Below are positions 3,263 to 32,266 of a DNA stretch of 33,071 nucleotides, in pieces. The notes beneath the pieces were generated by a model. The model made no database searches and had not been told where the DNA came from. It worked only from the letters and a program-made list of their open reading frames with translations. Position 1 is the stretch's first letter. Every line of letters begins with the position of its first letter. Source of the DNA: Betaproteobacteria bacterium RIFCSPLOWO2_02_FULL_62_17 (GTDB taxonomy: Bacteria > Pseudomonadota > Gammaproteobacteria > Burkholderiales > SG8-39); contig MEQV01000212.1 in the NCBI GenBank assembly GCA_001770355.1, positions 7,385 through 40,455 on the forward strand. The letters run 5' to 3'. A program made the position numbers and the translations under genes.

Positions 3263-3264
3263 GC

Positions 3265-15213: not shown

Positions 15214-15828
15214 ATGGCGAGGCAGCGCGCACTTCCCGTCGATGTTCATCCCGAGACGCTGTCGCGACTTCCGCCCCTGCGGCGCGAGGACCTGGACGAA
15301 GCCCGGCAAAAAGCCTATGACGCGCTTAGCCGGCCGCCGCAAGGCGGACTGAATCTGGCCGGCATCAAAGGCCCGGGCGGGGTGCTTTTGCGCATGCCAA
15401 AACTGGGCAAATTCTTCGACGAGGTAAATCGCATTCTGCGTTCGGAGTTGGGCCTTGATCCGCGCCTGGTCGAAGTGGCCATCCTGGCCACGGCGCGCGA
15501 AATGTCCAGCCAGTTCGAATGGGCCATGCATGAGCCCGTGGCGATCGAAAAGGGTGTCGCGGCGAAAACCGTCGACATGATCAGGCGCCGCAAGCCGCTC
15601 TCAGGCGTGCCGGAAAAGGAAGCGGCTCTGGTTGAACTGGTGCGCGAAGCCGTGGGCGCGAAAAACGTCACTTCGGCGACTTACGCGCGTGCGCTCGCCT
15701 TGTTTGGCGAAGAAGGGCTGCTTCACTATGCGGCGTTGATCGGCAATTACGCGCAAACGGCGATCATCCTGGGCATAGTAGGCCAGCAACTGCACGATCA
15801 CCCGAGGCCAGCACCGCGCAGTCGGTGA
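15214..15828 (+). CDS. Carboxymuconolactone decarboxylase (CMD/AhpD-like) family protein with a replaced C-terminus
   Basis: RLVEVAILATAREMSSQFEWAMHEPVAIEKGV matches the CMD-family E(F/Y)EW..H motif. It is a paralog of the 32444-33071 gene up to QQLHD, after which the tail HPRPAPRSR* is read from the antisense of a hyuA fragment. Confidence 0.72.
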   Translation: MARQRALPVDVHPETLSRLPPLRREDLDEARQKAYDALSRPPQGGLNLAGIKGPGGVLLRMPKLGKFFDEVNRILRSELGLDPRLVEVAILATAREMSSQFEWAMHEPVAIEKGVAAKTVDMIRRRKPLSGVPEKEAALVELVREAVGAKNVTSATYARALALFGEEGLLHYAALIGNYAQTAIILGIVGQQLHDHPRPAPRSR

Positions 15829-15865
15829 ACGTTCCTCCGATATCAATGCCTATGTAGTAGGCCAT
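15764..15865 (-). pseudogene. Remnant 5' end of a hydantoinase-A (HyuA-like) gene
   Basis: The minus strand reads MAYYIGIDIGGTFTDCAVLASGDRAVAGLLCPG*. The intact HyuA at 25449 starts MSYFIGIDIGGTFTDCVVLDSDGRI. Convincing similarity covers about 22 codons (15800-15865). Confidence 0.7.
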
Positions 15866-15955
15866 TTCAGAAAAAGCCGCCGCTCGGCGCTCCTGAGCGC
15901 ATGCGCGAGCGCCTCCCGCGCCGCCTTTCAACGCGCGAAGCGACGGATGCCGCGC

Positions 15956-17131
15956 TCATACCACCCCTTTCTTCCGCCATTCCGCGATCGTATCCTCCAC
16001 ATAGCCCATGCTTTTCAGAATCTCCTCGCTGTGCTCTCCCGCGGTGGGCGGCGGCAGGCTCATGCGAGGCGGTGTCGCGCTCATCCGGATTGCGCTGCCC
16101 ACTAGACTCACATCGCCCATCCGGGGATGCACCATCTCGACCAGCATCCCCAAGTGCTTGACCTGCGGGTGTTCGAACACCTCGCTCATATTCAGCAGCG
16201 GTGCCGCCGGTACGTCGTGCTCATCCAGCAGTTTCAACCACCGTTCGCGCGTTCCGGAGGCGAATTTCTCTATCAAGATCGCCTGCAGCGCCGGGTAGTT
16301 CCTGACGCGCGCTTCACGGTTGACGAAGCGCGGATCGTCCTTGAGTTCGGGCCGAGCGATGGCATCGGCGAGGCCGTGCCAGAACTTCTGCGGCGAGGAC
16401 AGGTGAATGATGAAGGGCCGCCGGTCCGAGTCGAGGAACGCATACACCTGAGCCATGTGCAAGCGCGTCTCGCGCGTGGGTACGGGTCCGCCGGCAAGAT
16501 ATCGAACGGCATTTTCCGCGCAGAATGCGAGCGTGGCCTGGAGCAGCGAGGTTTCCACTTTCTGGCCCACGCCGGCGCGTTCCCGTGCCAGGAGCGCACC
16601 CTGCACCGCATAACAGGCATACATTCCGGTCAGCAGATCCGACAGGGAAGCGCCCATTCCCGTGGGCGCATCGACGTCGGTGAGCACGCTCAGCAAGCCT
16701 CCCAGAGCCTGCCCGATGGTGTCGTAGCCAGGCCGGTCTCGGTACGGGCCGTCGGACCCGTAGCCGGAAATCGAACAGTAAACGATACGTGGGTTACCGG
16801 CCCTCACCGCCTCGTAGCCGACGCCGATTCGATCAAGGGCACCCGGTCTCATGTTCTCGATGATCACATCGACGTCTCGCGCCAGCCGCCGGAGGACTTC
16901 CTTCCCCTCGGCCGACTGGATGTTGAGCGAGAGGCTGCGCTTGTTGCGGTTCATGCTGCAAAAGGTGGGGCTGTAGGGCGTGTCGCCCCAGCCGCGGAAG
17001 GCGTCCCCCTGCCCCGGCATCTCGATCTTGATGACCTCGGCGCCGAGATCGGCCAGCAGCATCGAGGCGAACGGGCCGGTGATATAGCTGGCAATCTCCA
17101 GGATCCTGATGCCTTCCAATGCTCCCGCCAT
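15956..17131 (-). CDS. Family III CoA-transferase (CaiB/BaiF/Frc type)
   Basis: GIRILEIASYITGPFASMLLADLGAEVIKIE is the family N-terminal signature. 391 aa. RBS AAAGGAAG. Confidence 0.88.
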   Translation of the reverse strand: MAGALEGIRILEIASYITGPFASMLLADLGAEVIKIEMPGQGDAFRGWGDTPYSPTFCSMNRNKRSLSLNIQSAEGKEVLRRLARDVDVIIENMRPGALDRIGVGYEAVRAGNPRIVYCSISGYGSDGPYRDRPGYDTIGQALGGLLSVLTDVDAPTGMGASLSDLLTGMYACYAVQGALLARERAGVGQKVETSLLQATLAFCAENAVRYLAGGPVPTRETRLHMAQVYAFLDSDRRPFIIHLSSPQKFWHGLADAIARPELKDDPRFVNREARVRNYPALQAILIEKFASGTRERWLKLLDEHDVPAAPLLNMSEVFEHPQVKHLGMLVEMVHPRMGDVSLVGSAIRMSATPPRMSLPPPTAGEHSEEILKSMGYVEDTIAEWRKKGVV

Positions 17132-17173
17132 GTTGCTTCCTTTCGATGAGCCTGCGGTTTGCGGCCGGCAGCG

Positions 17174-17581
17174 TCACGCGCGCGGCCGGAACTTGGGCAG
17201 TGAGATCTCTTCGTTGATCTTCTCGAACAGCACTTCCACCGCCATGTCGCACCGAATCCGTGCAGTTTCCACGCCGACAATGTTGCTCAGCAGACGGGGG
17301 CCTTCCTCGAGTTCCACGCAGGCAACCGCGTAGGGCAGGTCATTCGCAAAGGCAGGGTGGTAGGCGCGGTGGAATACAACGAAGGAGTGAACCCTGCCCC
17401 GACCCGACACGGGCACCCACTCGGAAGACGTGGAACTGCACTCCGGGCACAGCACGCCGGGCGGGAATCGGTATGAACTACAGTCCAGGCAGCGTTGCAG
17501 TCGCAGTTCCCCGTTGCGGGTGGCCTCCCAGAAGGGTTTGGAATCTTCCGATGGCGTCGGAATCGGCTTGGATGGCGTCAT
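17174..17581 (-). CDS. DUF35 Zn-ribbon/OB-fold protein
   Basis: SKPFWEATRNGELRLQRCLDCSSYRFPPGVLCPECSS (CxxC...CxxC rubredoxin-like), followed by an OB-fold-length C-terminus. The start lies 4 nt downstream of the upstream thiolase-like gene's stop. Confidence 0.85.
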   Translation of the reverse strand: MTPSKPIPTPSEDSKPFWEATRNGELRLQRCLDCSSYRFPPGVLCPECSSTSSEWVPVSGRGRVHSFVVFHRAYHPAFANDLPYAVACVELEEGPRLLSNIVGVETARIRCDMAVEVLFEKINEEISLPKFRPRA

Positions 17582-17585
17582 GGCT

Positions 17586-18725
17586 TCACTTCCTGAGGAT
17601 CAAGGTCGAGTGGCAGACCGCATTGCCGCCGTTGCCGCTCACTAGCGCCGTCTGCGCATCGGGCACCTGCCGGGGACCGCACTGACCCCGCAGCTGGCGC
17701 GTCGCCTCGACGATCTGCAGCATGCCTTCGACGTATCCTTCGGAAAGCATGCCCCCGGACGTATTGGTGGGCAGAGCGCCGCCCAGCTCCAGGCGCCCGC
17801 CCTGCACGAACGGGCCGCCCTCGCCTTTCTTGCAGAAACCGTAATCCTCCAAAGAGGCGAGCACGATGTAGGAATAGCAGTCGTAAATCTGTGCCGTATC
17901 AATGTCCGCGGGGGTCACGCCAGCCATGCGGAATGCCTTGGCGCCGGATTCCCGGGCGGCCAGCTCGGTCATGTGATTCCCATAGTTCCAGCCGCGCGAA
18001 TTGTTGGCGCGCCCCATCCCCATGACGAAGACCGGCGGCTGGCGCAGGTCCCTCGCGCGCTCGGCCGAGGTGACGATCACCGCGGCGGCGCCGTCGCTCA
18101 CCAGGCAGCAGTCGAGCAGGTGGAACGGCCATACGACCCACCGGGAACGATGGTAATCATCGAGTGTCATCGGTTCGCGCATCTGGGCCTCGGGATTGAG
18201 GCATGCGTGCTTGCGGAAAGCTACCGCGATGGCGCCCAACTGATCGTGAGTAGTGCCGTACTCGTGCATGTGCCGGGTCGCTCCCAGCGCATGTTGCGCG
18301 GTGGCCCCGAACATGCCGAACTCCGGTCCGAACTCCTGCACCGGCTCGTGGCCGTCACCGCTCTTGCGGGTCAGGCCCTTGTCACCATGCAGGCACAGCA
18401 CGGTCGAGCAGAATCCGGCCTCGATGGCGGCGGCCGCGAGCTGCACCATGAGGCAGGAGGTCGCACCGCCGGAGGACACCGACAGTCCGAAATCCGTGTC
18501 GATGCCCAGCCGCTCGGCCAAGCGCTGATGATGCACGCGCACGGCTCCCAGCAGGTGGCTGTGCGTGATGATACCGTCGATGTCCTGCTTCTTCAATCCC
18601 GCATCGTCGAGGGCGCTCTTCACCGCAGCGAGCTGCAAACCGTAGTCGCTCATTTCGGGTACGCGCCCGATGCGGCTCTGTCCCACGCCGACGATGGCGT
18701 ACTTGTCTCTCAGTGCCGCGTTCAT
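17586..18725 (-). CDS. Thiolase-fold protein (SCP-x/Ltp type), probably a non-thiolytic aldolase-like member
   Basis: KYAIVGVGQSRIG start and NTSGGMLSEG near the C-terminus place it in the thiolase superfamily. ATG at 18725 follows an AAGGAGAGG RBS, so the longer ORF to 19151 is rejected. See findings for the missing Cys and His residues. Confidence 0.8.
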   Translation of the reverse strand: MNAALRDKYAIVGVGQSRIGRVPEMSDYGLQLAAVKSALDDAGLKKQDIDGIITHSHLLGAVRVHHQRLAERLGIDTDFGLSVSSGGATSCLMVQLAAAAIEAGFCSTVLCLHGDKGLTRKSGDGHEPVQEFGPEFGMFGATAQHALGATRHMHEYGTTHDQLGAIAVAFRKHACLNPEAQMREPMTLDDYHRSRWVVWPFHLLDCCLVSDGAAAVIVTSAERARDLRQPPVFVMGMGRANNSRGWNYGNHMTELAARESGAKAFRMAGVTPADIDTAQIYDCYSYIVLASLEDYGFCKKGEGGPFVQGGRLELGGALPTNTSGGMLSEGYVEGMLQIVEATRQLRGQCGPRQVPDAQTALVSGNGGNAVCHSTLILRK

Positions 18726-18750
18726 GATCCTCTCCTTGGCGCTCAAGCTT

Positions 18751-18766
18751 AGCAATATTCTTTGCT
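18751..18766. promoter_or_regulatory. Palindrome AGCAA-N6-TTGCT in the divergent intergenic region
   Basis: AGCAATATTCTTTGCT sits in the AT-richest part of the 120-bp gap between the divergently transcribed thiolase-like and carboxyltransferase genes. A further TTGCT lies downstream. Confidence 0.25.
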
Positions 18767-18845
18767 TGTTGGTAGACTCGTTGCTTTCGTGAAGGTGTGT
18801 CTTGCACCGCGTCGGACGACGCGGCCTGCGGATCGGAGATCGTCC

Positions 18846-20300
18846 ATGGACACGGTGAAGTTTGTCGACACGACTCTGCGCGACGGGCAGATGAGTCTTT
18901 GGGCGACAAACATGACCACCGCCATGATTCTGCCGGTGGCCGAAAGCATCGACCAGGCGGGGTTCGAGGCGGCCGAGATCATTGCGGCTGCCTTTTTCAA
19001 GAAGTGCGTGCGCGAGCTGCACGAGGATCCCTGGGAGCGCATACGCCAGGTACGGGCGCGCATGCCCAACACCCCGCTGCGGGCCATTCGGGGCCGGTAC
19101 ATGAGCGCCTTCCAGATCACGCCCGCTTCGATTACCGAACTCTGGCTGCAAAGACTGGCCGCCAACGGCATCCGCGAGATCCGGATATCCGATTCGTCCA
19201 ACACTCCGGCAGTGTGGCGCGATCAGGTGTCCAGCGCCCGCGCCGCCGGAATGTCAACCATCGTCAACCTGATTTTCTCGATTTCTCCCAAGCATACGGA
19301 CGCCTACTATGCCGAGAAGGCTGCCGCGGCCGCGCGGCTCGGTACCGACCGGATGTGCCTGAAGGACCCCGGCGGGCTGCTGACTCCCGAGCGCACGCGC
19401 ACATTGGTGCCGGCAATACTTCGAGAGGCGGGTGAGGTGCCGATCGAGTTCCATACTCACTGCAATTTGGGTATGGGCACGCCGTGCTGCGTCGAAGCCA
19501 TAAAGCTCGGAATCAGGTCGGTCAATACCGCCATCCCGCCGCTCTCGGACGGATCCTCGAACCCTTCGGTGTTCGACGTTGTTCGCAACGCGCGCGTCCT
19601 GGGCTACTCCTGCGACCTGGAGGAGGAGCCGCTCGCGGCGGTCGAGCAGCATTTCTCCGCCATCGCCCGGCGCCAGCGTCTGCCCGTGGGCGCGCCGGTG
19701 CGCTACGACTGCTCCAACTATCTCCACCAGGTGCCCGGTGGCATGATCTCCAATCTGCGCCACCAGCTGGCCAACCTGGGATTGGATGGGAAATTGCAGG
19801 AGGTACTCGATGAGACGACCCGAGTGCGCGCGGACCTGGGTTATCCCATCATGGTGACGCCCTATTCCCAGTTCGTGGGCGCTCAGGCGGTGATGAACGT
19901 CGTTCTTGGAGAACGCTACAAGAGCGTATCCGACGAAGTCATTCAATACACCCTGGGTTTCTGGGGCGAGGAAGAAAGTACATCGATCGATCCGGATATA
20001 AAGGGGCGCATCCTCGGCAATCCGCGTGCGAAGGAACTGGCCGCCTGGCGGCCTCCTCAACCGACTTTGAAAGAACTGCGCCAACAATACGGGGGGGTGT
20101 CCGATGACGATCTGCTGCTGCACTATTTTGCCGGAGGGAGCGACGTGGCGGCCATGCGCGCCGCCGGCCCCCGCCAGGAATCCGGCGACGGTGTGCCCAC
20201 CCTCGCGCGGCTGATCGAGGCGTTGAACGTGAGCGGCCAATGCCGGCACATTCAGGTGCGCAAGAGCGGCATGTCGTTCACGCTGCAGCGTCGCCGGTGA
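18846..20300 (+). CDS. Carboxyltransferase, oxaloacetate decarboxylase alpha / pyruvate carboxylase B / transcarboxylase 5S-like, without a biotinyl domain
   Basis: VKFVDTTLRDGQMSLWATNM is the HMGL-like/PYC_OADA N-terminal signature. At 484 aa it ends ...VRKSGMSFTLQRRR with no (A/V)MKM biotin attachment motif. RBS GGAGA lies 6 nt upstream. Confidence 0.78.
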   Translation: MDTVKFVDTTLRDGQMSLWATNMTTAMILPVAESIDQAGFEAAEIIAAAFFKKCVRELHEDPWERIRQVRARMPNTPLRAIRGRYMSAFQITPASITELWLQRLAANGIREIRISDSSNTPAVWRDQVSSARAAGMSTIVNLIFSISPKHTDAYYAEKAAAAARLGTDRMCLKDPGGLLTPERTRTLVPAILREAGEVPIEFHTHCNLGMGTPCCVEAIKLGIRSVNTAIPPLSDGSSNPSVFDVVRNARVLGYSCDLEEEPLAAVEQHFSAIARRQRLPVGAPVRYDCSNYLHQVPGGMISNLRHQLANLGLDGKLQEVLDETTRVRADLGYPIMVTPYSQFVGAQAVMNVVLGERYKSVSDEVIQYTLGFWGEEESTSIDPDIKGRILGNPRAKELAAWRPPQPTLKELRQQYGGVSDDDLLLHYFAGGSDVAAMRAAGPRQESGDGVPTLARLIEALNVSGQCRHIQVRKSGMSFTLQRRR

Positions 20301-20313
20301 GCAGGAGCGGCCG

Positions 20314-21063
20314 ATGACGACCACGCAGACAGTGCTGGTGACTGGTGCGGCCAGCGGAATCGGCAGGGCATGCGCCGCCAGGCTGCTCGACCAGGGGCAC
20401 GAGGTGGTGGCCATGGACGTGAATGGTGAGGCACTCGCCGCGGCGCTGCGTCCGGAGGGTTCGCGCCTGATGCTGCAGCAGTGCGACGTCTCGCAGGCGC
20501 AAAGCTGCGCGGATGCGATCGCCGCAGCGATCGCACGATTCGGCAAGGTGGACGCGTTGATCCACTGGGCAGCGATCCATTCCAGCACCTTCTGGACCGA
20601 TCTGGGCGCGGATGAATTCAACCGCGTGCTCTCAACCAATGTCACCGGGTCCTTTCTTATCGCGCAGGCTGCCGGACTGCACATGAAGACCCGCGGCAAG
20701 GGGGCGATCGTGCTCGCCTCATCGACGTCGATGCTGGCCGGGTCGACTGGCGGGCAGACTGGAAGCGGCGGCGCAGCCTACGTCGCCTCAAAGGCGGCGA
20801 TCATCGGCTTGGTGCGCTCACTCGCCAACGCCCTCGGGCGCTATGGCGTACGGGTGAACGCGGTGGCCCCCGGGGTGGTCGACACCCCCATGATCGGCGG
20901 CTACTCGGCCGAGCACCGCGCGGCGCAGCCCGCCCGCGTGCCGCTCGGCCGGATCGGCTCGCCGGATGAGATCGCCGACGTGGGCTGCTTTCTGATCTCG
21001 CACGAATCCAGGTACATCCACGGCGAGACCATTATCGTCAACGGCGGTGCCAATTTCGGCTGA
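20314..21063 (+). CDS. SDR-family oxidoreductase
   Basis: VLVTGAASGIGRA and YVASKAA motifs. Confidence 0.88.
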   Translation: MTTTQTVLVTGAASGIGRACAARLLDQGHEVVAMDVNGEALAAALRPEGSRLMLQQCDVSQAQSCADAIAAAIARFGKVDALIHWAAIHSSTFWTDLGADEFNRVLSTNVTGSFLIAQAAGLHMKTRGKGAIVLASSTSMLAGSTGGQTGSGGAAYVASKAAIIGLVRSLANALGRYGVRVNAVAPGVVDTPMIGGYSAEHRAAQPARVPLGRIGSPDEIADVGCFLISHESRYIHGETIIVNGGANFG

Positions 21064-21087: not shown

Positions 21088-21771
21088 ATGATGCGATTGA
21101 GGGTCATTTTTCCTTCGGCGCGCAAGGTCTATCCGGACAAGGAAGTCGAATTGCGCACCGCCACCTTGCGCAATTTCTGCGGGCCGAATACCCAATTGGA
21201 ATTCAGCTATCCCGACGAAGGCGAAACCTTCAAGCAGAATCTGACCTGGGACGATTTCATCAAGGCCATACCGCATTTCGTTCTGGCCGCGAAACAGGCC
21301 GAAGCCGAAGGCGTTGACGCGATCATGATCCATTGTGTCTACGATCCGGGCTATGAAGAAATCCGCCGGGCCGTGAAGATCCCGGTGGTAGGCTTTGGCC
21401 AGGCGGTGTTCAACGCCGCGCTGCAGATCGCGCCACGCTTCGGCATCATCGCGCCCAATGATTCCCTCTTGAAGGAAGCCAACGACGTCATGGACCAGTA
21501 TCGTGTGCGCGACCGGCTCGCCCATATGGAACCGCTGAACGTCCAGCTGCCCGAAGCGCACCTGCGCGGGGAAGAGCTTCGCAGGCGCTCCGTGGATATC
21601 GCCCGCCGCTGCAGGGAGAAGGGCGCGGGCGTGGTGATTCCTTTTGGCATGGCGCTGATTCCCACCCACCTTCGCACTGAGGACATTCGAGAGAGCGCCG
21701 GCATCCCGGTGCTCAACCCGGCGCAAATCGGCATACGCGAGGCGGAAATCATCATGGAAGCCGTCGCCTGA
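21088..21771 (+). CDS. Asp/Glu/hydantoin racemase superfamily protein (atypical active site)
   Basis: VDAIMIHCVYDPGYEEIRRAVKIPVVGFGQA resembles the first catalytic-Cys block of hydantoin racemases (CFGDPG). The second block reads VVIPFGMA and has no Cys. Confidence 0.65.
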   Translation: MMRLRVIFPSARKVYPDKEVELRTATLRNFCGPNTQLEFSYPDEGETFKQNLTWDDFIKAIPHFVLAAKQAEAEGVDAIMIHCVYDPGYEEIRRAVKIPVVGFGQAVFNAALQIAPRFGIIAPNDSLLKEANDVMDQYRVRDRLAHMEPLNVQLPEAHLRGEELRRRSVDIARRCREKGAGVVIPFGMALIPTHLRTEDIRESAGIPVLNPAQIGIREAEIIMEAVA

Positions 21772-23171: not shown

Positions 23172-23269
23172 ATCAAGGATAGGTGAGGGGGCAACACGCC
23201 AGGCAATTATGCGATGCTCTCCGAGCGAAGGTGCAGAATGACCACAAAGCCGAGTGCGAGGAGGATGTC

Positions 23270-24421: not shown

Positions 24422-25396
24422 ATGAAAAACGCCAGAAACCATATTGAAATGGCCGTCGCAATGTTGGCAGCTATCGTTGCCTTCGACATTCATGCCCAGA
24501 GTTTTCCCAGCAAACCGATACGCATGGTAGTGCCATTTCCTCCGGGAGGTCCCGGGGAGGTTATCGCGAGACCGGTTGCCGATGGCTTGCAGGCGGTGAT
24601 CGGGCAGCCGGTGGTCGTCGATTTCAAGCCCGGCGCGGGTGCGATTCCAGGCATGCAGTCTTTGATGAGCGCGCCCGCTGATGGCCATACGCTGTTCGTA
24701 GGCAGCAATGTGCTGGTGCTCTCGAAGTGGTTGTTCAAGAATCTTCCCTACGATCCTCAGCGGGATCTGCGCGGCATCGTGGAACTGGCGAACAGCCCGT
24801 ACCTGGTGCTGGTGTCCTCGTCCTTTCCGGGTTCCTCAATCGCCGATCTAATCAATGCGGCCAAGGCGGCGCCCGGAAAGCTCAACTACGCCTCCTCCGG
24901 GGCCGGTACCCAGTCGCATATTTCGGCCGAAATGTTCAGCGACGCGGCGGGAATCAAAATGACCCAGGTGCCCTACAAAGGCGCCGGGCCCGCGTACCCG
25001 GCGCTGATGTCGGGTGATGTAACGGTATTTTTCGACAATGTTTTTTCCTCGGTGGGTCAGGTCAAGGGCGGGCGAATCAAGCCGCTGGGTGTGACGAGTC
25101 TTGCGAGAGTGTCTCAGTATCCGAGCCTGCCGACCGTCGACGAGCAGGGACTGAAAGGTTTTGAGACCTCGAGCTGGTTTGGCATCGTCGCGGCCAAAGG
25201 GGTTCCCGATGCGATCGTGGCGCGCTTGAACGAGGCCTTGAACAAGGCGCTGCAGGCCCCCGAGGTTCGGGAGCGTTACGGCAAACTCGGCCTGATGCCT
25301 ACCGGCGGCAGTGCCCAGGGGTTTCAGAAATTGATAGACGGCGAGCTCGATCGGACCGGCAAGGTGGTGCGATCAGTCGGCATTACCATCAACTGA
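24422..25396 (+). CDS. Bug/TctC-family substrate-binding protein
   Basis: A signal peptide, then AQSFPSKPIRMVVPFPPGGPGEVIAR. ATG at 24422 follows GAAGAGGAGA. Confidence 0.85.
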   Translation: MKNARNHIEMAVAMLAAIVAFDIHAQSFPSKPIRMVVPFPPGGPGEVIARPVADGLQAVIGQPVVVDFKPGAGAIPGMQSLMSAPADGHTLFVGSNVLVLSKWLFKNLPYDPQRDLRGIVELANSPYLVLVSSSFPGSSIADLINAAKAAPGKLNYASSGAGTQSHISAEMFSDAAGIKMTQVPYKGAGPAYPALMSGDVTVFFDNVFSSVGQVKGGRIKPLGVTSLARVSQYPSLPTVDEQGLKGFETSSWFGIVAAKGVPDAIVARLNEALNKALQAPEVRERYGKLGLMPTGGSAQGFQKLIDGELDRTGKVVRSVGITIN

Positions 25397-25448: not shown

Positions 25449-27566
25449 ATGAGTTATTTCATCGGCATCGACATCGGCGGCACGTTCACGGATTGCGTCG
25501 TACTGGATTCCGACGGTCGGATCGCCGCGATCGCGAAGTCGCCAACGCGGCGCGCCAAACCCGATGAAGGGGTGATCAACTCGGTTGCCGCGGCGGCGAG
25601 GCGCATGGGAATCGAGCCCGCTGCGCTACTGGGAGACTGCCGGTTTTTTGTCCACGGCTGCACCGTGGCGACCAACGCCATTGTGGAAAGGAAAGGCGTG
25701 CGCACGGCCCTTGTCACCACGCGTGGCCACGAGGACGCGATCTTCATCGGCAAGGCATCGCAGAAAGTCGCCGGGCGCACCGAGCGCGAAATGAATCATC
25801 AGTCGCACCTGGACAAGGCCGATCCGCCCATCGTCGCGCCGCGGGACGTGCACGGCATATCCGAGCGCATCGATTCGCGCGGCGATGTCGTGGTCGAATT
25901 GAATGAAGACGATGTCTCGCGCGCGGTCGAGGCGTTGCGTCGCGACGGCATCGAGTCGGTGGCGATTTCTTTTCTCTGGTCGTTTCAGAACGGCGATCAT
26001 GAGCGGCGCGTACGCGAACGCGTGGAGCGGGAACTTCCCGGCGTCTATGTATGCGCGTCGCACGTGCTCGCCCCGCTGATCGGCGAGTACGAGCGCACCG
26101 CGACCACCGTGGCCAATGCCTACGTCGGGCCCAGGCTGATCGGCTACCTTGATCGTCTGGGCGACCGGTTGGCCGCAGGCGGTTATCGCTATCCCCTGCT
26201 GCTTGCCCATTGCATGGGCGGGCTCACGACAATGGAGGAAATCCGCCTGCGGCCTTTGCTGACGCTGGATTCGGGCCCCGTCAGCGGCGTGCTGGGGGCG
26301 CGCTACTTCGGCGCCGTCTATGGCGAACCCGACATCATCTGCGCCGACATGGGCGGCACCACCTTCGATGTGGCCTTGATCGAAGACGGCCAGTACATTC
26401 TTGATGAAGAGCCGGTCATTGACCGCTACACCTGCCTGATCCCCAAGGTGGCGGTGGAGTCTGTCGGCGCCGGCGGGGGGAGCATTGTATGGTGCGACGA
26501 CAACAAGCTGCTTCGCGTCGGGCCGCACAGCGCCGGGGCGGAACCCGGCCCCGCCTGCTATGGCTCAGGCGGGGCCGCGCCCACGGTTACCGATGTCAAT
26601 CTGGTGCTTGGCTATCTCAGTCCGGAGGCATTTCTCGGCGGTGAAATGCGCCTGGACCGGGCCGCCGCCGAACGCGCGGTCCAAGCCGTGGGCGCGAAGC
26701 TCGGCCTGGATTGCCTGCAGGCGGCGGCGGGCGCGTTCAGGATAGTCAACGCCAATATGGCCGACCTGATCCGGCGCTCCAGCATCGATCGCGGACGCGA
26801 CGCGCGCGATTTCGTTTTGTTCGCCTATGGCGGGGCCGGCGCGCTGCACATTGCGTATTTGGCGCGCGATCTGGGCGTCAGTAAGGTTTATGTGCCTTCG
26901 TTTGCCACGGTATTCTCGGCGCTGGGCATGCTTACCGGGGGAATCGTGCACGCGTCGGAACGATCCAGCCTCGCCGCGTTTCCGATGGAGCCCGGGCGAT
27001 GGCGCGAGTTGGGCGGCATGTTCCAAGAACTCGAACAAAATCTGGGCAAGCTGTTCGAGCGCGAGGGAATCGAACCCGATGCGCGCCGGCACGCCCGCTT
27101 CGCGCATGTGAAATACCGTTTGCAGCCGCGCGCGCTGGCCGTGCCGGTGACCGCTGACTTCGCGCAAGCGGATTCGCAGGACCGCTTGCTTGCCGCGTTT
27201 CAGAAACAGTACGCGGCTCTCTACGGCGAGAATTCGGGCTATGGCGCCGCGAGCATCGAGATTGTCAAGTGCCGGGTGGAAGCGTCGGCGGACATGGTGC
27301 TGCCGCGGCTCGCCGCGGCCCCGGCCATTGGGCCCCGCGATGCGTCGCCGGCGAAAAAGGGCGAGCGCGACATTTATCTTGCCGAGCTGGGCGCCAGGGT
27401 GCCGGCGTCCATTTACGATGGCGAGCGTCTTGCGCCGGGAATGACGCTTGGCGGGCCGGCTGTGATCGAAAGAATGGGCGACACCATCCTCCTGCCCGGA
27501 TTTGCCGGGGGCGTGGTGGATGGTTTCGGCAATATCGTCATCGAACTGCAAGCGGTGGCAAAATGA
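25449..27566 (+). CDS. Hydantoinase/oxoprolinase A-type subunit (HyuA / acetone carboxylase beta-like)
   Basis: MSYFIGIDIGGTFTDCVVL N-terminus, a second ATPase-fold motif ICADMGGTTFDV, 705 aa. Confidence 0.88.
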   Translation: MSYFIGIDIGGTFTDCVVLDSDGRIAAIAKSPTRRAKPDEGVINSVAAAARRMGIEPAALLGDCRFFVHGCTVATNAIVERKGVRTALVTTRGHEDAIFIGKASQKVAGRTEREMNHQSHLDKADPPIVAPRDVHGISERIDSRGDVVVELNEDDVSRAVEALRRDGIESVAISFLWSFQNGDHERRVRERVERELPGVYVCASHVLAPLIGEYERTATTVANAYVGPRLIGYLDRLGDRLAAGGYRYPLLLAHCMGGLTTMEEIRLRPLLTLDSGPVSGVLGARYFGAVYGEPDIICADMGGTTFDVALIEDGQYILDEEPVIDRYTCLIPKVAVESVGAGGGSIVWCDDNKLLRVGPHSAGAEPGPACYGSGGAAPTVTDVNLVLGYLSPEAFLGGEMRLDRAAAERAVQAVGAKLGLDCLQAAAGAFRIVNANMADLIRRSSIDRGRDARDFVLFAYGGAGALHIAYLARDLGVSKVYVPSFATVFSALGMLTGGIVHASERSSLAAFPMEPGRWRELGGMFQELEQNLGKLFEREGIEPDARRHARFAHVKYRLQPRALAVPVTADFAQADSQDRLLAAFQKQYAALYGENSGYGAASIEIVKCRVEASADMVLPRLAAAPAIGPRDASPAKKGERDIYLAELGARVPASIYDGERLAPGMTLGGPAVIERMGDTILLPGFAGGVVDGFGNIVIELQAVAK

Positions 27567-29836
27567 ACGCAGGCAAGCGCATTTCAGCCATTCCTTCGAC
27601 CTCACGGCGGCTTGATCCCATCACGCTGGAGGTGCTGCGCAACCGCCTTGCCATGATCAACGACGAGCAGGGACGCGTGGCCTCGCAGCTGTCGGGTTCG
27701 CCGGTGGTGTACGAGGCCAAGGATTTCAACAGCGCGCTGCTGACGCCCGAGGGGGAGGGCTTGTTCGTCGGCATTTACATGACGCGCCTTTCGCTGTGCC
27801 TCAACGGCTTTGCCAAGACCGTGATCGCAAGCTTCAAGGACAACGTCGGCTACGCCGAGGGCGATGCCTTCGTCACCAACGACCCCTGGGCGGGCGCGGC
27901 GCATATGAACGATTTCCTGATGATCGCGCCGATATTTCACCAGGGCACGCTGGTGTGCTGGACCGGCCTCGCGATGCACGAAGTCGATGTCGGCGGCCCC
28001 AATCCAGGCAGTTTCACCGTGGGCACGCCGGACGTATTCGGCGAAGCGCCGCTGATTCCGCCGGTCAAGATGGTGGAGCGCGGAACGATTAGAAACGACA
28101 TCGAGGCGCTGCTGATCCGCAATTCGCGCACCCCGAGGCTCAACGGCCTGAACATGCGCGCGCGGATCGCAGCGATCAACCGAACTCGCCAGCGGATCGG
28201 GGAAGTGATCGCCGAGTACGGCCTTGAAACCGTGATGGAGGCGCAGCGCGGCATTCTCGATCTGGCGCACTCGTCGTTTGCGCGACGCTTGCGCTCGCTG
28301 CCCGATGGAACCTGGAAAACGGAGGGTTTTCTCGATCACGACGGCAATCAGAATCGCCTGTATCGGATTTGCCTTGCGATGACCAAGCGCGCGGAGCGCC
28401 TGTGCTTCGATTTTACCGGCACCGACGCGCAGGCGCGCGGGGCGATTAACTGCACCAAGACCGGCCTGGAGAGCGGCATACTGTCGGCGGTCTTGCCCAT
28501 GCTGTGCTACGACATTCCGTGGACCACCGGCGGCATCATGCCGATGATCGATATCATTTCCGAAGAGGGGACGATCAATAACGCGCGCCATCCGGCGGCG
28601 GTCAGCATGGCCACCGTCTCCGGCATTTTTGCCACTTCCCATGTGACCTCCGGAACCATCGCAAAAATGCTTGCGTGCTCTTGCCTGCAGGGCGAGATTC
28701 AGGCGAACTGGGCGCCCGCGTGGCAGGGTGTCACCATAGCGGGCCACTTCGCGGGTGGGAGGCCGTTTACCGCGGTGCTGCTCGATGAGACCGGCGGAAG
28801 CGGTGCGCGCGCCTGGAAGGACGGCATCGATGCCGGCGGATTGCCCGGTTCGCCAGCCATGGCAATCGCCAATGTCGAGGTGTACGAGAAAGAGTATCCG
28901 ATACTCTATGTGTATCGCCGTCAGTCGCCCGACACCGGCGGGCAGGGCATGACTCGCGGCGGGGTGGGCACCGAGGGCATGATGGTTGCGCATCGTAACG
29001 AAGGTCCGATCGACCTCACGCGTCTGGCGCATGGCGTGAGCCAGCCGGAAGCGCAGGGCCTCTATGGCGGCTATCCTTCGAGCGTCCAGGTCACGCTGCT
29101 GTTGCGCGAGTCGGATCACAAGCGCCAATTCGCCGATCGCCGTATACCGGTCGGCGTCGAAGCGCTGCAGGCGAGGAGCATCGAACCCATGCAGGCCAAG
29201 CAACGCATCCTGCTCGATCCCGAGGACGCGATCGTCATCGTGTGCGCGGGCGGGGGCGGCTATGGCGACCCGCTGCGGCGCGAGCCTGAGGCGGTTAGGG
29301 CCGATCTCGGTGCTGGATTGGTGAGCGCAAAAGTCGCGCGCGACGTCTATGGCGTGGCGATGCGCGAAGCCGATGGCGGGGGATCGACTTGCGGAGCCGG
29401 TCGCGGCGAATCGACTCGAATTGACACAGAACGGACCGCGCAATTGCGCAAAGCCATCCGCGAGCGGCGTCTGTCAGAAGGGAGGCGATCGCCTGCTCGC
29501 CCCCGGCGCGAGGTCGCGAACCAGGACAACTCCGCGGTGCTGGCGCAGAGCATAGGCGCGGCCCTGGACAGGGTCGAGACGAATGGCCGGGCGCAATACC
29601 TGTGCCGGCAATGCCGCCGCCCGATCTGTGGCGCGAACGAAGATCCCAAGTCCGGCGCCCTCGCGCGCTTGACCAGGATGGAATCGCTCAGTCCATGGAA
29701 TAAATACGGCCTGGTCGATGAGATCGTGGTGCGCGAATTCTGTTGTCCCGGCTGTGCCCAACTCATCGCGGTTGAAGTGCGGCGCAAGGACGATCCGGTG
29801 CTCTACGACACCGGTCTGGGTTGTCCGGCATCCTGA
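27563..29836 (+). CDS. Hydantoinase B/oxoprolinase-type subunit fused to a C-terminal acetone-carboxylase-gamma-like zinc domain
   Basis: DPITLEVLRNRLAMINDEQG is the HyuB start. ATG overlaps the HyuA stop (ATGA at 27563-27566). After the normal HyuB end (...VSAKVARDVYGVAM...TAQLRKAIRERR) come about 120 extra residues containing YLCRQCRRPIC and VVREFCCPGCAQLIAVEV. Confidence 0.82.
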   Translation: MNAGKRISAIPSTSRRLDPITLEVLRNRLAMINDEQGRVASQLSGSPVVYEAKDFNSALLTPEGEGLFVGIYMTRLSLCLNGFAKTVIASFKDNVGYAEGDAFVTNDPWAGAAHMNDFLMIAPIFHQGTLVCWTGLAMHEVDVGGPNPGSFTVGTPDVFGEAPLIPPVKMVERGTIRNDIEALLIRNSRTPRLNGLNMRARIAAINRTRQRIGEVIAEYGLETVMEAQRGILDLAHSSFARRLRSLPDGTWKTEGFLDHDGNQNRLYRICLAMTKRAERLCFDFTGTDAQARGAINCTKTGLESGILSAVLPMLCYDIPWTTGGIMPMIDIISEEGTINNARHPAAVSMATVSGIFATSHVTSGTIAKMLACSCLQGEIQANWAPAWQGVTIAGHFAGGRPFTAVLLDETGGSGARAWKDGIDAGGLPGSPAMAIANVEVYEKEYPILYVYRRQSPDTGGQGMTRGGVGTEGMMVAHRNEGPIDLTRLAHGVSQPEAQGLYGGYPSSVQVTLLLRESDHKRQFADRRIPVGVEALQARSIEPMQAKQRILLDPEDAIVIVCAGGGGYGDPLRREPEAVRADLGAGLVSAKVARDVYGVAMREADGGGSTCGAGRGESTRIDTERTAQLRKAIRERRLSEGRRSPARPRREVANQDNSAVLAQSIGAALDRVETNGRAQYLCRQCRRPICGANEDPKSGALARLTRMESLSPWNKYGLVDEIVVREFCCPGCAQLIAVEVRRKDDPVLYDTGLGCPAS

Positions 29837-29907
29837 TCGGAACGGCTTTTCCCCCGTATTTGAAAGTGTGACAAACCCGGCGCCTCAGGATCAAGGGAGA
29901 ATAAAGC

Positions 29908-30858
29908 TTGGACACTGTCGGATTCATTGGACTCGGAAAAATGGGCGGCCCGGTGGCCGAATGCATTCAGGTGGCGGGTTTTCCCATGGTGGTCTTCGAC
30001 ATCAACGCCGATGCCCAGGCGCCTTTTATCGAGCGCGGTGCTCGCGCCGCGGACTCCGCGGCCGCGGTCGCGCGCCTCTCCGATGTCGTCTACACCGCGC
30101 TGCCGACACAAGAGGCGGTTGAGAAGACCGCCCTGGGTTCCGGGGGAATTCTCGATGGCATCGGGAAAGGCGGCATCTATGTCGATATATCCACCGGCGG
30201 GCCTGATCTGATTCGGCGCATCGCGGCGCGTTTTCGGGAAAGGGATGCCTGGGCAGTGGATGCGCCGGTCAGCATCGGTCAACCAGGCGCCGCGCCGGGC
30301 GTGCACGAGATCATGATAGGCGCGGACCGCGAGGTATTCGAGCGCCTCATGCCGGTGTTGAAGGCCTATGGCGATCAGATCATTCATGCCGGCCCGGTCG
30401 GCAACGGATGCATCTGCAAGCTCGTGCATCAACTGATAGGTGCCGGCTGCTCCCAGGCGATAGCGGAAGGTTTGAGCCTGGGAGTGAAGGCGGGCGTGGA
30501 TGTCAAGGTGCTGTGGGAAGCGGTGCGCAGGGGACTGGTCGGGCGCATGGTCATGATGCACGATCATATTCCGACTTCGGTATTTTCCGGAAAGTACCAG
30601 CCGACAGTGTTTACACTCACGTTGTTGCGCAAGGACGTGGGAATCGCCAACGAGCTTGGACGGAAACTGGGCGTGCCCTTGCTGGTGGGCAATATCGCCG
30701 AACAGGTGATCACGCATTCGATCAACCGGGGCTGGGGCAATGGCTCGGGCTACGTGGTTACCTACCGCCTTCAGGAGGAAGCCGCCGGGGTGAGTCTTCG
30801 CGCCTCGGGGGTCGATCCCGCGAAAGCCAAAAAATACATCAGCACCCATCCTGACTGA
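29908..30858 (+). CDS. NAD(P)-dependent dehydrogenase, 3-hydroxyisobutyrate/6-phosphogluconate dehydrogenase-like
   Basis: VGFIGLGKMGGPVA Rossmann motif, DAPVS, and GPVGNGCICKLVHQ. TTG start at 29908 follows AGGGAGA. Confidence 0.82.
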   Translation: MDTVGFIGLGKMGGPVAECIQVAGFPMVVFDINADAQAPFIERGARAADSAAAVARLSDVVYTALPTQEAVEKTALGSGGILDGIGKGGIYVDISTGGPDLIRRIAARFRERDAWAVDAPVSIGQPGAAPGVHEIMIGADREVFERLMPVLKAYGDQIIHAGPVGNGCICKLVHQLIGAGCSQAIAEGLSLGVKAGVDVKVLWEAVRRGLVGRMVMMHDHIPTSVFSGKYQPTVFTLTLLRKDVGIANELGRKLGVPLLVGNIAEQVITHSINRGWGNGSGYVVTYRLQEEAAGVSLRASGVDPAKAKKYISTHPD

Positions 30859-30869
30859 AGGAAAATTCG

Positions 30870-31301
30870 ATGTCCATGCAAAACCTGGCCGGGCAGAACA
30901 AGAATCTGGTCCGCCGCTTCTATGATGAGGTGGAAAATCAAGGCAAACTCGAGTTGGTCGATGAGCTTTTCGCGGTTGACTTCAAGGACGTCTACAACAC
31001 GGCGTCGCCGTTTCCGGTTAAAGGCATCGATGGCGTCAAGAAACTGGCGGCGGCGTTGCATGACAACCTCGATTTGAAAATCGAAATCGAGGACCTGGTA
31101 GCCGAAGGGGACATGGTTGTGGCCAGGGTCACCTCCACCACCACGCACAAGATGCCCATGATGGGAGTGCCCCCGACCGGACGCGTGTATGCGACCCGAG
31201 GGGTGGAAATATTTCGCGTGATCGAGGGCAAACTCGCGGAGCGTTGGGTGTATTTCGACCGGATTCCCATGCTTCGCGATCTTGGCCTTATCCCCAAATA
31301 G
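30870..31301 (+). CDS. SnoaL-like / ester cyclase (NTF2-fold) protein
   Basis: NKNLVRRFYDEVENQGKLELVDELFAVDF and GVPPTGRVYATRGVEIFRVIEGKLAERWVYFD are typical of the ester-cyclase/SnoaL family. 143 aa. Confidence 0.75.
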   Translation: MSMQNLAGQNKNLVRRFYDEVENQGKLELVDELFAVDFKDVYNTASPFPVKGIDGVKKLAAALHDNLDLKIEIEDLVAEGDMVVARVTSTTTHKMPMMGVPPTGRVYATRGVEIFRVIEGKLAERWVYFDRIPMLRDLGLIPK

Positions 31302-31315
31302 CTGGAGAAATTGTC

Positions 31316-32266
31316 GTGAAAGTGCTCGTCACCGGCGCCGGCCTGGTCGGCTGCAATGTTGCCCGCCTTCTCAGGGAACGCGGCCATGAAGCGATTCTCT
31401 ACGACCGCGCGCCCGATCAGGCTTACATCGACAGCGTGGCGAAATCGGTTCCCGTTGTCACAGCCGACGTGCAGGAATTGTCCGCGCTGATCGAAACCCT
31501 GCAAGCGCATGACGTGGATACGATAGTGCATAGCGCCTACCAGATCGGCGGCAGCCTGCGAGCGCGCCCCTATGCGGGGGTGCGTGCCAATGTCGATGGC
31601 TGCCTGGCGCTTGTCGAAGCGGCTCGCCTTTGCAAGGTCCGCCGCTTCCTTTTCACCAGCAGCTTCGGGATCTACGACTGGAACCGGCTTCCGCGAGCGC
31701 CATTGACCGAGGACTTTCCCCTGGCCGGCGACAACCCCTATATCGCCAGCAAGATCGCTTGCGAGAAGCTTCTGGAGAGTCTGGCCAAGTCTTACGGACT
31801 CGAATTCGCGATACTTCGCCTCGCGCAAGTCTACGGACGCGGCCATTATCTGGGCGGCGATTTCGCGGGAGGCGCCGTGCACGAGGCCATAGCCTTGGCG
31901 CTGTCGGGCAATCCCGCCAGGATCGATCCGGGCGTGCTGACCGTCAACGACTATGTTTATGCGAAGGACGTGGGCCAAGGCGTAGTGCGCGCCTGTGAAA
32001 AGCCATTGAATCACCTTATCTACAACATCGGCTCGGGTGTTCTTGCAAGCACGCAAGACGTCGCGGCGGCCATCCAGAAGGCGGTGCCTGGGGCCAAGGT
32101 CGAAATTCTTGCCAGGCCGTTGATCGGTCCCATCTGGCGCCATGAACAGATGCTCGATCTCGACCGATCAAGGAAGGAATTGGGCTATCGGCCGCGATTC
32201 GATCTCGCCGACGGGGTCGCGGATTTCGCCGCGGAATTGGCGGCTGGCCGCGTGCCGCCGCCTTGA
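31316..32266 (+). CDS. NAD-dependent epimerase/dehydratase-family (extended SDR) protein
   Basis: VKVLVTGAGLVGCNVARLL Rossmann start and a YIASK catalytic motif. GTG at 31316 follows GGAGA. The longer ORF from 31244 overlaps the previous gene. Confidence 0.8.
   Translation: MKVLVTGAGLVGCNVARLLRERGHEAILYDRAPDQAYIDSVAKSVPVVTADVQELSALIETLQAHDVDTIVHSAYQIGGSLRARPYAGVRANVDGCLALVEAARLCKVRRFLFTSSFGIYDWNRLPRAPLTEDFPLAGDNPYIASKIACEKLLESLAKSYGLEFAILRLAQVYGRGHYLGGDFAGGAVHEAIALALSGNPARIDPGVLTVNDYVYAKDVGQGVVRACEKPLNHLIYNIGSGVLASTQDVAAAIQKAVPGAKVEILARPLIGPIWRHEQMLDLDRSRKELGYRPRFDLADGVADFAAELAAGRVPPP

Follow-up and report, generated by a model that had tools for sequence, protein, structure and literature searches.

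A 33,071-nt stretch of contig MEQV01000212.1 from Betaproteobacteria bacterium RIFCSPLOWO2_02_FULL_62_17 (the window) contains, at about 15.7–32.3 kb, a module that brings together four uncharacterised enzyme systems: an ATPase and metal subunit of the hydantoinase/oxoprolinase superfamily (HyuA and HyuB-gamma), a thiolase-fold protein of aldolase type with a DUF35 partner, a family III CoA-transferase (CaiB) and a carboxyltransferase of the 5S/OadA/PycB type that has no biotinyl domain (CT5S). We tentatively read this locus as a mosaic catabolic gene set in which the four systems would act on one carboxylic-acid substrate family. The reading seems to us plausible, if somewhat short of probable, and its shared pathway, step order and substrate are ones that we infer. 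The linkage itself is a bioinformatic association in uncultured organisms.

As predicted from its proteins, the set is distinguished by a HyuB with a fused gamma domain, an aldolase in place of a thiolase, a transferase in place of a ligase and a 5S-type carboxyltransferase with an altered pocket. The initial annotation of this DNA had set its composition apart from known clusters, and we agree: the module differs from the acxRABC, apc-bal, capAB and steroid side-chain clusters, and our literature search found no paper linking these families. Below, L-numbers and P0122 denote the related loci and contig used for comparison.

Active sites and domain architecture

HyuA and HyuB look catalytically intact, with their ATP and metal motifs kept. 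Both DxGGT phosphate-binding motifs are present in the HyuA translation (DIGGTFTD and DMGGTTFD), and the HyuB metal tetrad D54/H114/D117/H139 aligns with D41/H99/D102/H124 of CapB (motif and metal residues as defined in PMC8453981). The tetrad is common to lactamases and carboxylases and therefore does not tell which reaction is catalysed, so we dropped it as a carboxylase marker. HyuA scores alike against CapA, N-methylhydantoinase, ApcC and AcxB (306–374 bits), and for both subunits the scores to solved members lie close together; the best match of HyuB among these is an acetophenone carboxylase subunit (176 bits).

The C terminus of HyuB is more specific. At about residues 655–757 it carries a gamma-like domain with an invariant CxxC...CPxC pattern (four invariant Cys). 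On the single HyuB sequence, the Acetone_carb_G model (PF08882) falls just under its cut-off (20.7 against 21 bits). A profile of the domain built from 16 family members matches the small zinc subunits ApcB (E 1.4e-7) and AcxC (E 6e-7); its other matches are generic zinc fingers over about 20 residues, with no other full-length family match. The description of this protein as an acetone-carboxylase-like HyuB-gamma is thereby upheld, the profile being significant only against ApcB and AcxC, and the family profile also finds the domain in related loci and sampled relatives. Because the zinc ribbon matches ApcB and AcxC, the three-part architecture is of the carboxylase type, here with gamma fused to the HyuB-type subunit.

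By its scores, HyuA/HyuB-gamma lies outside every characterised clade. All curated NCBIfam cut-offs were missed (CapA 539/1000, CapB 199/1000, ApcC 395/1500 and ApcD 198/1500 bits), which places the pair in no characterised lactamase or oxoprolinase family, as had been anticipated, and no acetone carboxylase model was among the NCBIfam matches listed. HyuB has 747 relatives at E ≤ 1e-20; most of the 120 listed are about 720–770 amino acids (aa) long and are named only 'hydantoinase B/oxoprolinase'.

The same superfamily includes AcxABC and the acetophenone carboxylase of the Aromatoleum aromaticum pathway (the short-chain dehydrogenase/reductase (SDR) Ped, Apc, benzoylacetate-CoA ligase and thiolase). 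The window shares with these a HyuA-like ATPase, a HyuB-like metal subunit and a small zinc-ribbon part, together with an adjoining SDR or alcohol dehydrogenase gene and a CoA-activating enzyme nearby. An SDR or alcohol dehydrogenase beside HyuAB parallels the pairing of alcohol dehydrogenase and carboxylase in the acetone and acetophenone pathways. However, the zinc ribbon of the window is fused to HyuB rather than forming a separate subunit, and there is neither a second HyuA-like subunit nor an AcxR-type regulator in the window. The CoA step belongs to a family III transferase, unlike the ligase of the Apc pathway, and the thiolase-fold partner, having no nucleophilic Cys, would be expected to split beta-hydroxy thioesters and not the beta-keto ones. 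In contrast to CapAB, OplAB and N-methylhydantoinase, which have an A+B architecture without the gamma zinc ribbon, the window HyuB carries a fused gamma.

The thiolase-fold protein is a predicted retro-aldolase of the Sal/Ltp2 type. Its best PDB matches are the uncharacterised 4u4e (302 bits), TcLtp2 (6ok1, 219 bits) and CtSal (9myr, 208 bits). Gly87 takes the place of the nucleophilic Cys of 7yvy, an archaeal thiolase, and lines up with the Ltp2 Gly; a YDCY motif occupies residues 281–284, and Tyr331 falls at the position of TcLtp2 Tyr344 in the alignment with these solved structures. Among 78 relatives, Gly is kept at the nucleophile position in 76, and the Tyr and Cys in 77 and 75, respectively, with the YDC(F/Y) motif in at least 75 of the 78. 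In a 2025 study of CtSal, mutagenesis identified Tyr302 and Cys304 of YDCY as the catalytic pair; the paper also reports that Ltp2 relies on Tyr344 together with the YDHF Tyr, and remarks that a Gly in place of the nucleophile excludes thiolysis (PMC12329534). Because the YDCY motif is identical to that of CtSal and Gly stands for Cys, the active site is of the aldolase and not the thiolase type. The proposal of an Ltp2-like aldolase agrees with all three features: Gly for the nucleophilic Cys, the YDCY motif and the Tyr344 equivalent. A genuine thiolase step following the carboxylase, of the kind known from acetone and acetophenone degradation, was ruled out by the Gly found in 76 of the 78 relatives.

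Given that 4u4e scores ahead of Ltp2 and Sal, the protein forms a separate branch of the aldolase-type group, with a free-standing DUF35 protein as its presumed partner. The SCP2-thiolase fold and the Gly at the nucleophile position are shared with Sal–Shy(DUF35) of Comamonas testosteroni and Ltp2–ChsH2(DUF35) of actinobacteria, as are the CtSal Tyr302/Cys304 motif, the Tyr at the Ltp2 Tyr344 position and a zinc-ribbon/OB DUF35 partner. In the window, by contrast, DUF35 stands alone and is not fused to a MaoC hydratase, and the constant partner of the aldolase is a CaiB-type CoA-transferase (33/80 loci). The setting also differs from steroid side-chain clusters: the window has no steroid ring-degradation genes, and we found no MaoC hydratase or acyl-CoA dehydrogenase gene among the window open reading frames (ORFs) scanned with Pfam. 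The CoA_transf_3 match of CaiB is full length (profile positions 1–366 of 366); its best NCBIfam models are succinate–glutarate, formyl-CoA and mesaconate (dicarboxylate) transferases, with all scores under the cut-offs.

CT5S shares an HMGL-like TIM barrel and a PYC_OADA domain with 5S of transcarboxylase, OadA and PycB; its PDB matches are PycB (5ks8, 246 bits), OadA (2nx9, 220 bits) and 5S (1rqb, 206 bits). It keeps the RD, KDPGG and HTH metal motifs of these structures, which are conserved in 120 relatives. RD, KD and HxH motifs supply the metal ligands and the carbamylated lysine. In contrast, the HQS and RGQNLLGY motifs, which have a role in pyruvate/oxaloacetate binding, are replaced across the family. 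They read QMS (in RDGQMS) and RGRYMSAF in CT5S, and the positions vary across the 120 relatives; we take these changes as a predicted alteration of the substrate pocket. CT5S scores under all NCBIfam cut-offs and has more than 7,000 relatives at E ≤ 1e-30.

Unlike biotin-dependent carboxyltransferases, CT5S pairs in the window with the aldolase/DUF35/CaiB trio and HyuAB-gamma rather than with a biotin carboxylase, and it differs from 5S, OadA and PycB in having neither a biotinyl domain nor a carrier gene in the window. Separate biotin carriers do adjoin CT5S relatives in L014, L109 and L112; in the last two (44–65% identity) a biotin carboxylase gene is adjacent as well. Biotin-dependent aryl methyl ketone carboxylases (Xcc/Acv/Hpe type) also have comparable carboxyltransferase subunits. 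A relative at 40% identity, on a Pseudomonas putida YC-AE1 plasmid (L113; NZ_CP047312.1, 199493–218947), is clustered with a biotin carrier, a biotin carboxylase, a Tm-1-like ATP-binding protein, a HAD hydrolase, an amidohydrolase and an acetoacetate-CoA ligase, an ensemble that we presume to resemble the clusters for biotin-dependent carboxylation of 4-hydroxyacetophenone and acetovanillone.

Two of the accessory proteins have informative scores or residues. The racemase-fold protein (Race) keeps the first catalytic Cys of hydantoin racemase 2eq5 (IHCVYDP) and has Met at the second, a position that is Met or Leu in the four orthologues (window, L001, L009 and L014). The missing second Cys rules out a canonical racemase; function as a two-base racemase is unlikely from these residues, and a one-base isomerase or decarboxylase is a possible candidate. 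The same absence takes most of the weight from the suggestion that a racemase-fold neighbour hints at a hydantoin or lactam substrate. The flavoprotein gives 240 bits to the NCBIfam model for flavocytochrome c and 195 bits to that for TcuA, reaching neither cut-off.

Gene neighbourhoods in other genomes

We sampled neighbourhoods from three starting points: 18 HyuB-gamma loci from a species-representative genome collection, 80 metagenome loci around the aldolase (out of more than 500 metagenome matches) and nine CT5S loci, the window included. CT5S is the hub of the association. Seven of its nine loci have a CoA-transferase, seven a beta-hydroxyacyl-CoA lyase, four a gamma-bearing HyuAB and three a biotin carrier. 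The lyase is the aldolase/DUF35 pair in the window, P0122, L110 and L114, and a short Citrate_synt/citryl-CoA lyase in L014, L109, L110 and L112.

Two of these loci come closest to the window in content or layout. In L114, a metagenome-assembled genome (MAG; CT5S 66% identical), TctC, aldolase (57%), DUF35 (50%), HyuA, HyuB plus gamma and CaiB (55%) form one operon, with CT5S convergent; the fused gamma of this HyuB is recognized by the profile at E 2e-9. The 6-kb P0122 contig (CT5S 72%) has CaiB<-DUF35<-aldolase divergent from CT5S->SDR, the layout of the window, with a cut gene of 266 aa after caiB. L110 (68%) combines CaiB, aldolase, DUF35 and CT5S with a short citrate-synthase-like gene. 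In L107 (66%), CT5S is divergent from an SDR (78%), a 3-hydroxyacyl-CoA dehydrogenase, a racemase relic, the flavoprotein (71%), HyuA (79%) and HyuB-gamma (80%); the relic (5614–5820, minus strand) retains 64 C-terminal residues at 43% identity and is flanked by the flavoprotein gene and by the 3-hydroxyacyl-CoA dehydrogenase gene that occupies its place in the operon. L014, an alphaproteobacterial MAG, has HyuA, HyuB-gamma, Race (64%), CaiB (42%), CT5S (56%) and a separate biotin carrier (BCCP), with a short citrate-synthase-like gene and an Amidohydro_3 gene upstream. L109 (65%) and a Sulfitobacter plasmid (L112, 44%) share a combination of biotin carboxylase, biotin carrier, CoA-transferase and citryl-CoA-lyase-like gene, with no HyuAB, and L108 (64%) has none of the partners. 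That the partners are orthologous subfamilies in varied orders and orientations argues against a single inherited accident.

Around HyuB, all relatives above 40% identity in the genome collection come from MAGs or assemblies of uncultured isolates of Beta- and Alphaproteobacteria. L001 and L009 (HyuB 84%) keep the order SDR–Race–FAD–TctC–TctC–HyuA–HyuB (FAD being the flavoprotein gene), with a luciferase-like monooxygenase and a hydrolase upstream of the SDR, and L001 and L005 (81%, cut within hyuA) keep HIBADH–SnoaL–Epimerase after HyuB. The first TctC protein has a 93% orthologue in L001, the second has 79–83% orthologues in L001 and L009, flavoprotein orthologues occur in L001, L009 and L107, and orthologues of the HIBADH-like, SnoaL and Epimerase proteins occur in L001 and L005 (the HIBADH NCBIfam matches are below cut-off). 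In L009 an IS240-family DDE transposase gene (11992–12567, minus strand) directly follows hyuB-gamma at the position of HIBADH–SnoaL–Epimerase in L001 and the window, which points to recent operon truncation in this MAG.

At 60–76% HyuB identity only the SDR stays (61–67% in L006-8, L012, L017 and L025), and Zn- or Fe-dependent alcohol dehydrogenases and LIV-type ABC or MFS transporters adjoin HyuAB; a 30% homologue of the extended SDR comes after the transporter genes in L006-8. Because the SDR alone persists at this distance, SDR, HyuA and HyuB-gamma make up a stable core. The SDR is the most constant neighbour of this HyuAB subfamily, with orthologues of 61–78% identity beside HyuA/HyuB-gamma in L001, L006-8, L009, L012, L017, L025 and L107. 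As a separate observation, a Chloroflexi MAG (L021) has genes for an ApaLI-like restriction endonuclease and a DNA methylase between hyuA and hyuB (7991–9923), and a true SCP2-thiolase (Cys, HDCF)/DUF35 pair divergent from hyuA.

Around the aldolase, DUF35 adjoins the gene in 72 of the 80 loci, and a CaiB orthologue (52–81% identity) lies within 4 kb in 33 of them, or in 13 of the 22 that have at least 2.5 kb on both sides. The trio of aldolase, DUF35 and CaiB is therefore a conserved unit in its own right.

A search of the PLSDB plasmids with HyuB-gamma, CT5S and the aldolase gave no relative above 50% identity. The cultured isolate Variovorax sp. SRS16 carries, on plasmid 3 (L115; NZ_LR594668.1, 256854–275984), an aldolase-type protein (49%) with DUF35, along with MaoC, four CaiB-type genes (one double-length), a pcaC gene of the carboxymuconolactone decarboxylase (CMD) family and MmgE/PrpD. 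About 3.6 kb from the aldolase/DUF35 pair are TctC, HyuA, a gamma-less HyuB of another subfamily and CaiB; the 69-aa neighbour of this HyuAB is not a gamma domain. L115 is a possible, if distant, experimental proxy.

Gene inventory, hyuA relic and flanking regions

The module comprises 14 genes and a hyuA relic at the positions first annotated, and Pfam agrees with every gene assignment made there. By their coordinates, the two gene sets diverge from a 120-nt intergenic region (18726..18845) between the aldolase and CT5S genes. Gaps are short, or stops and starts overlap. In the minus-strand set they measure 4 nt (aldolase–DUF35) and 42 nt (DUF35–CaiB). In the plus-strand set they are 13, 24 and −1 nt from CT5S to the FAD gene, about 98 nt to the first TctC gene (11 if GTG at 23183 is the start), about 174 nt between the TctC genes, and 52, −4, 71, 11 and 14 nt from the second TctC gene onward. 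Scans for consensus promoters and terminators gave sites no more numerous than in shuffled sequence, with no consensus promoter in the intergenic region, and the operon boundaries are therefore drawn from spacing.

Table 1. Features of the module, with strand and supporting match
Feature	Position (nt)	Strand	Evidence
hyuA relic	15785..15865	-	tblastn
Family III (CaiB/Frc-type) CoA-transferase, CaiB	15956..17131	-	Pfam CoA_transf_3, 383 bits
Stand-alone DUF35 protein, zinc ribbon + OB fold	17174..17581	-	Pfam zf-ChsH2 + OB_ChsH2_C
SCP2-thiolase-fold protein, predicted Sal/Ltp2-type retro-aldolase	17586..18725	-	Pfam Thiolase_C_1
CT5S, 5S/OadA/PycB-type carboxyltransferase without biotinyl domain	18846..20300	+	Pfam HMGL-like + PYC_OADA
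Classical SDR	20314..21063	+	Pfam adh_short_C2
Asp/Glu/hydantoin-racemase-fold protein (Race)	21088..21771	+	Pfam Asp_Glu_race
Flavoprotein, flavocytochrome c/TcuA/KstD-like dehydrogenase (FAD)	21771..23171	+	Pfam FAD_binding_2
TctC/Bug periplasmic carboxylate-binding protein 1	23270..24247	+	Pfam TctC
TctC/Bug periplasmic carboxylate-binding protein 2	24422..25396	+	Pfam TctC
HyuA-type ATPase subunit	25449..27566	+	Pfam Hydant_A_N, Hydantoinase_A, Hydant_A_C
HyuB-type metal subunit with fused gamma-like zinc ribbon (HyuB-gamma)	27563..29836	+	Hydantoinase_B 385 bits, Acetone_carb_G 20.7 bits
Beta-hydroxyacid dehydrogenase, HIBADH/tartronate-semialdehyde-reductase family	29908..30858	+	Pfam NAD_binding_2 + NAD_binding_11
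SnoaL-like (NTF2-fold) protein	30870..31301	+	Pfam SnoaL
Extended SDR, NAD-dependent epimerase/dehydratase, 3-beta-HSD-like	31316..32266	+	Pfam Epimerase

The hyuA relic reported downstream of caiB is real. On the minus strand from 15865 down to 15785, MAYYIGIDIGGTFTDCAVLASGDRAVA is 70% identical to residues 1–27 of the window HyuA (tblastn, E 1.5e-6 within the window), that is, 27 codons of the N-terminal ATPase motif followed by 6 unrelated codons and a stop. It is 74–77% identical to the HyuA N termini of the HyuB-gamma subfamily in other loci, whereas its DNA matches the hyuA of the window at no more than about 73%. These two figures mark it as the relic of a paralogue and rule out a recent copy of that gene. 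The relic belongs to the HyuB-gamma-associated HyuA subfamily, which implies that a second hyuA of this kind once followed caiB. It runs into the 3′ end of a convergent CMD gene (15109–15828, plus strand), a junction that we therefore regard as the truncation joint. A former hyuA after caiB fits the L114 arrangement in kind, not in subfamily.

This CMD-family (carboxymuconolactone decarboxylase/AhpD-like) gene abuts the relic with zero intergenic space, and it has an inverted, inward-facing paralogue (32444–33071, minus strand; 56% identical in protein) that seems to run past the window end, so that the pair flanks the whole module. Considered as the ends of a mobile element, the two come with no transposase among the scanned window ORFs and with only that protein identity. 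Three tandem TctC/Bug genes lie directly upstream of the module (12049–15096, minus strand), making five in 33 kb with the module's two. Further upstream, a separate gene set (1–10441) includes an ABC ATPase and permease, a UbiD-family decarboxylase (1760–3262), two adjoining GntR/UTRA regulators (3288–4981), an NMT1-type binding protein, a class II aldolase, an FAA-hydrolase-family protein, an SDR, a Zn-dependent alcohol dehydrogenase-like gene and an alpha/beta hydrolase; UbiD, NMT1 and MmgE/PrpD genes recur close to HyuAB or CT5S relatives. A PIN-domain gene (11060–11464, minus strand), in the lowest-GC kilobase of the window (11001–12000; 54.5% against about 62%), may be a toxin–antitoxin remnant between two catabolic regions.

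A proposed pathway and its alternatives

In the scheme that we favour, the two TctC proteins, which point to a carboxylate substrate, would bind a hydroxy- or oxo-carboxylic acid for uptake, and the CaiB-type transferase would load CoA on a beta-hydroxy acid. The aldolase, held by DUF35, would split the beta-hydroxyacyl-CoA in a retro-aldol reaction that yields a carbonyl compound and acetyl-CoA. Four redox proteins, namely the classical and extended SDRs, the HIBADH-like enzyme and the flavoprotein, may interconvert alcohol, ketone and enone forms; the dehydrogenases fit alcohol–ketone interconversion. A ketone that is not further oxidisable would be turned by HyuA/HyuB-gamma, with ATP and bicarbonate, into a beta-keto acid, which the transferase would return to the CoA level for housekeeping enzymes to finish. 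The CoA-transferase may thus have two roles, with the incoming beta-hydroxy acid as one substrate and the beta-keto acid product as the other, and CT5S might add or remove a carboxyl group next to the carbonyl on one intermediate. An aldolase that yields a carbonyl compound, beside a carboxylase-type enzyme for ketones, makes chemical sense: a ketone set free from a tertiary or secondary alcohol leads nowhere until it is carboxylated or oxygenated. In essence, this scheme had been drawn in the initial annotation. Its family assignments and the co-occurrence of its parts are supported; its reaction order and substrate stay conjectural.

Several observations weigh against this scheme. CT5S has no clear place in it, and the scanned window ORFs include no biotin carrier, Biotin_lipoyl match or biotin carboxylase. 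Nor do they include a thiolase that could complete the breakdown of a beta-ketoacyl-CoA, or a hydratase or acyl-CoA dehydrogenase that could supply the beta-hydroxyacyl-CoA. CT5S, aldolase, DUF35 and CaiB are absent from the DNA seen in L001, L009 and L005 (about 10 kb either side in L001). CT5S occurs in none of the 80 aldolase-centred loci, and hydantoinase genes occur in only two (L065 and L077), from a different subfamily at 31–38% identity. The L114 HyuAB is only 30–37% identical to that of the window. The hyuA beside caiB in the window is dead, and the gene after caiB in close relatives is TctC (L032) or alcohol dehydrogenase-like (L086), so that hyuA as the ancestral gene in this place was not found in those two loci. 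The co-occurrence figures, moreover, are raw locus counts without a background rate for chance adjacency. The expectation that the four families would be found together elsewhere is thus borne out in individual loci (all four in L114, the same divergent layout in P0122, subsets in L110, L107 and L014) but fails as a general rule, given the closest HyuAB relatives without partners and the 80 aldolase loci without CT5S. The co-occurrence is real but patchy, and far from universal.

A route for a hydroxy-polycarboxylate, resembling citrate lyase and oxaloacetate decarboxylase, is the main alternative, though an unlikely one. Here the real unit would be the trio plus CT5S, with a separate HyuAB-gamma operon fused to it in this genome. 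CaiB would convert an acid resembling citrate or citramalate, imported via TctC, to its CoA ester, the aldolase (elsewhere the short citryl-CoA-lyase-like protein) would release acetyl-CoA and an oxaloacetate-like oxo-dicarboxylate, and CT5S would decarboxylate the latter. This accounts for the CoA-transferase and the beta-hydroxyacyl-CoA lyase each present in seven of the nine CT5S loci, for the short citryl-CoA-lyase-like genes that recur beside CT5S and for the HyuAB operon without CT5S or the trio in L001 and L009. It also agrees with PycB, OadA and 5S as the closest solved relatives of CT5S, with dicarboxylate transferases as the best CaiB models, with a TcuA-like flavoprotein, with the TctC or TRAP carboxylate transporters that recur in CT5S loci, and with MmgE/PrpD genes that adjoin CT5S in L109 and HyuAB or aldolase relatives in other loci. 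The logic of citrate fermentation is similar, in that it shares a CoA-transfer step, a lyase releasing acetyl-CoA from a beta-hydroxy thioester, an OadA-like protein and tricarboxylate-type binding proteins. The window differs from it in using free CoA esters and a family III transferase rather than an acyl-carrier-protein-bound lyase complex, a thiolase-fold aldolase for CitE/Ccl and an altered carboxyltransferase pocket, with no membrane OadB. Against such a route, CT5S lacks the canonical HQS and RGQNLLGY motifs for pyruvate/oxaloacetate binding, HyuAB-gamma-type genes lie inside the L114 trio operon and beside the trio in L065 and L077, and in the window the hyuA relic comes after caiB. 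The CT5S–SDR gap of only 13 nt, with an SDR also after CT5S in P0122, likewise ties CT5S to the other operon.

It is rather unlikely that the genes share no pathway and are adjacent through shuffling in Bug/TctC-rich catabolic islands of Burkholderiales, where CoA-transferases, thiolase-fold/DUF35 pairs and hydantoinase pairs would each be present in several copies and often come to lie close together. The contexts of all three sampled families are highly variable, and signs of rearrangement in the window are at hand in the truncated hyuA and the inverted CMD paralogues at both ends of the module. A transposase gene directly follows hyuB in L009, and the distantly related aldolase/DUF35 pair of SRS16 lies 3.6 kb from a gamma-less HyuAB of another subfamily. 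However, the partners found together are orthologous subfamilies (50–80% identity) rather than random paralogues, and they recur in varied orders and orientations in at least five independent contigs, among them the single operon of L114.

An ATP-dependent, ring-opening amidohydrolase acting on a carboxylated cyclic amide or imide, with Race handling a stereocentre and the remaining genes processing the opened product, we consider improbable. HyuA scores best against caprolactamase CapA (374 bits) and N-methylhydantoinase (371 bits), CapA also gives the 539-bit NCBIfam match, the Race gene accompanies HyuAB in four loci (the window, L001, L009 and L014) and has left a relic in L107, an Amidohydro_3 gene lies upstream in L014, and the metal tetrad would suit this chemistry equally. 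Yet the gamma zinc ribbon is known only from carboxylases, HyuB matches an acetophenone carboxylase subunit best, the curated lactamase cut-offs are missed 2–5-fold, Race lacks the second catalytic Cys in all four orthologues, and the genes that constantly adjoin HyuAB encode alcohol dehydrogenases rather than carbamoylases or aminotransferases.

Finally, we regard as highly improbable a single hybrid carboxylation system in which HyuAB would replace biotin carboxylase as the ATP-using, activating half, making for example a phosphoenol-ketone or carboxyphosphate, and CT5S would transfer the carboxyl group; the hint of it is a complementary distribution around CT5S in six loci, without statistics, with biotin carboxylase and carrier but no HyuAB in L109 and L112, HyuAB-gamma but no biotin carboxylase or carrier in the window, L107 and L114, and HyuAB-gamma plus carrier with no biotin carboxylase seen in L014.

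Returning to the mosaic catabolic gene set, its genes may well form an undescribed route for the breakdown of a carboxylic acid. To our knowledge, the ATP-dependent carboxylases of ketones described so far are of two types, those for acetone and acetophenone, and thiolase-fold aldolases are known only from steroid side-chain cleavage. The module links HyuB and the aldolase to each other, two large families whose high-identity members are found only in metagenomes and MAGs. If the reading is true, these bacteria would have an oxygen-independent means of cleaving a C–C bond next to a tertiary or secondary alcohol and of salvaging the resulting ketone, with chemistry of interest for biocatalysis (CO2 fixation onto ketones and aldol reactions on CoA esters), and genes in their thousands that at present carry the names 'hydantoinase B/oxoprolinase', 'acetyl-CoA acetyltransferase' or 'oxaloacetate decarboxylase alpha subunit' would gain a function.

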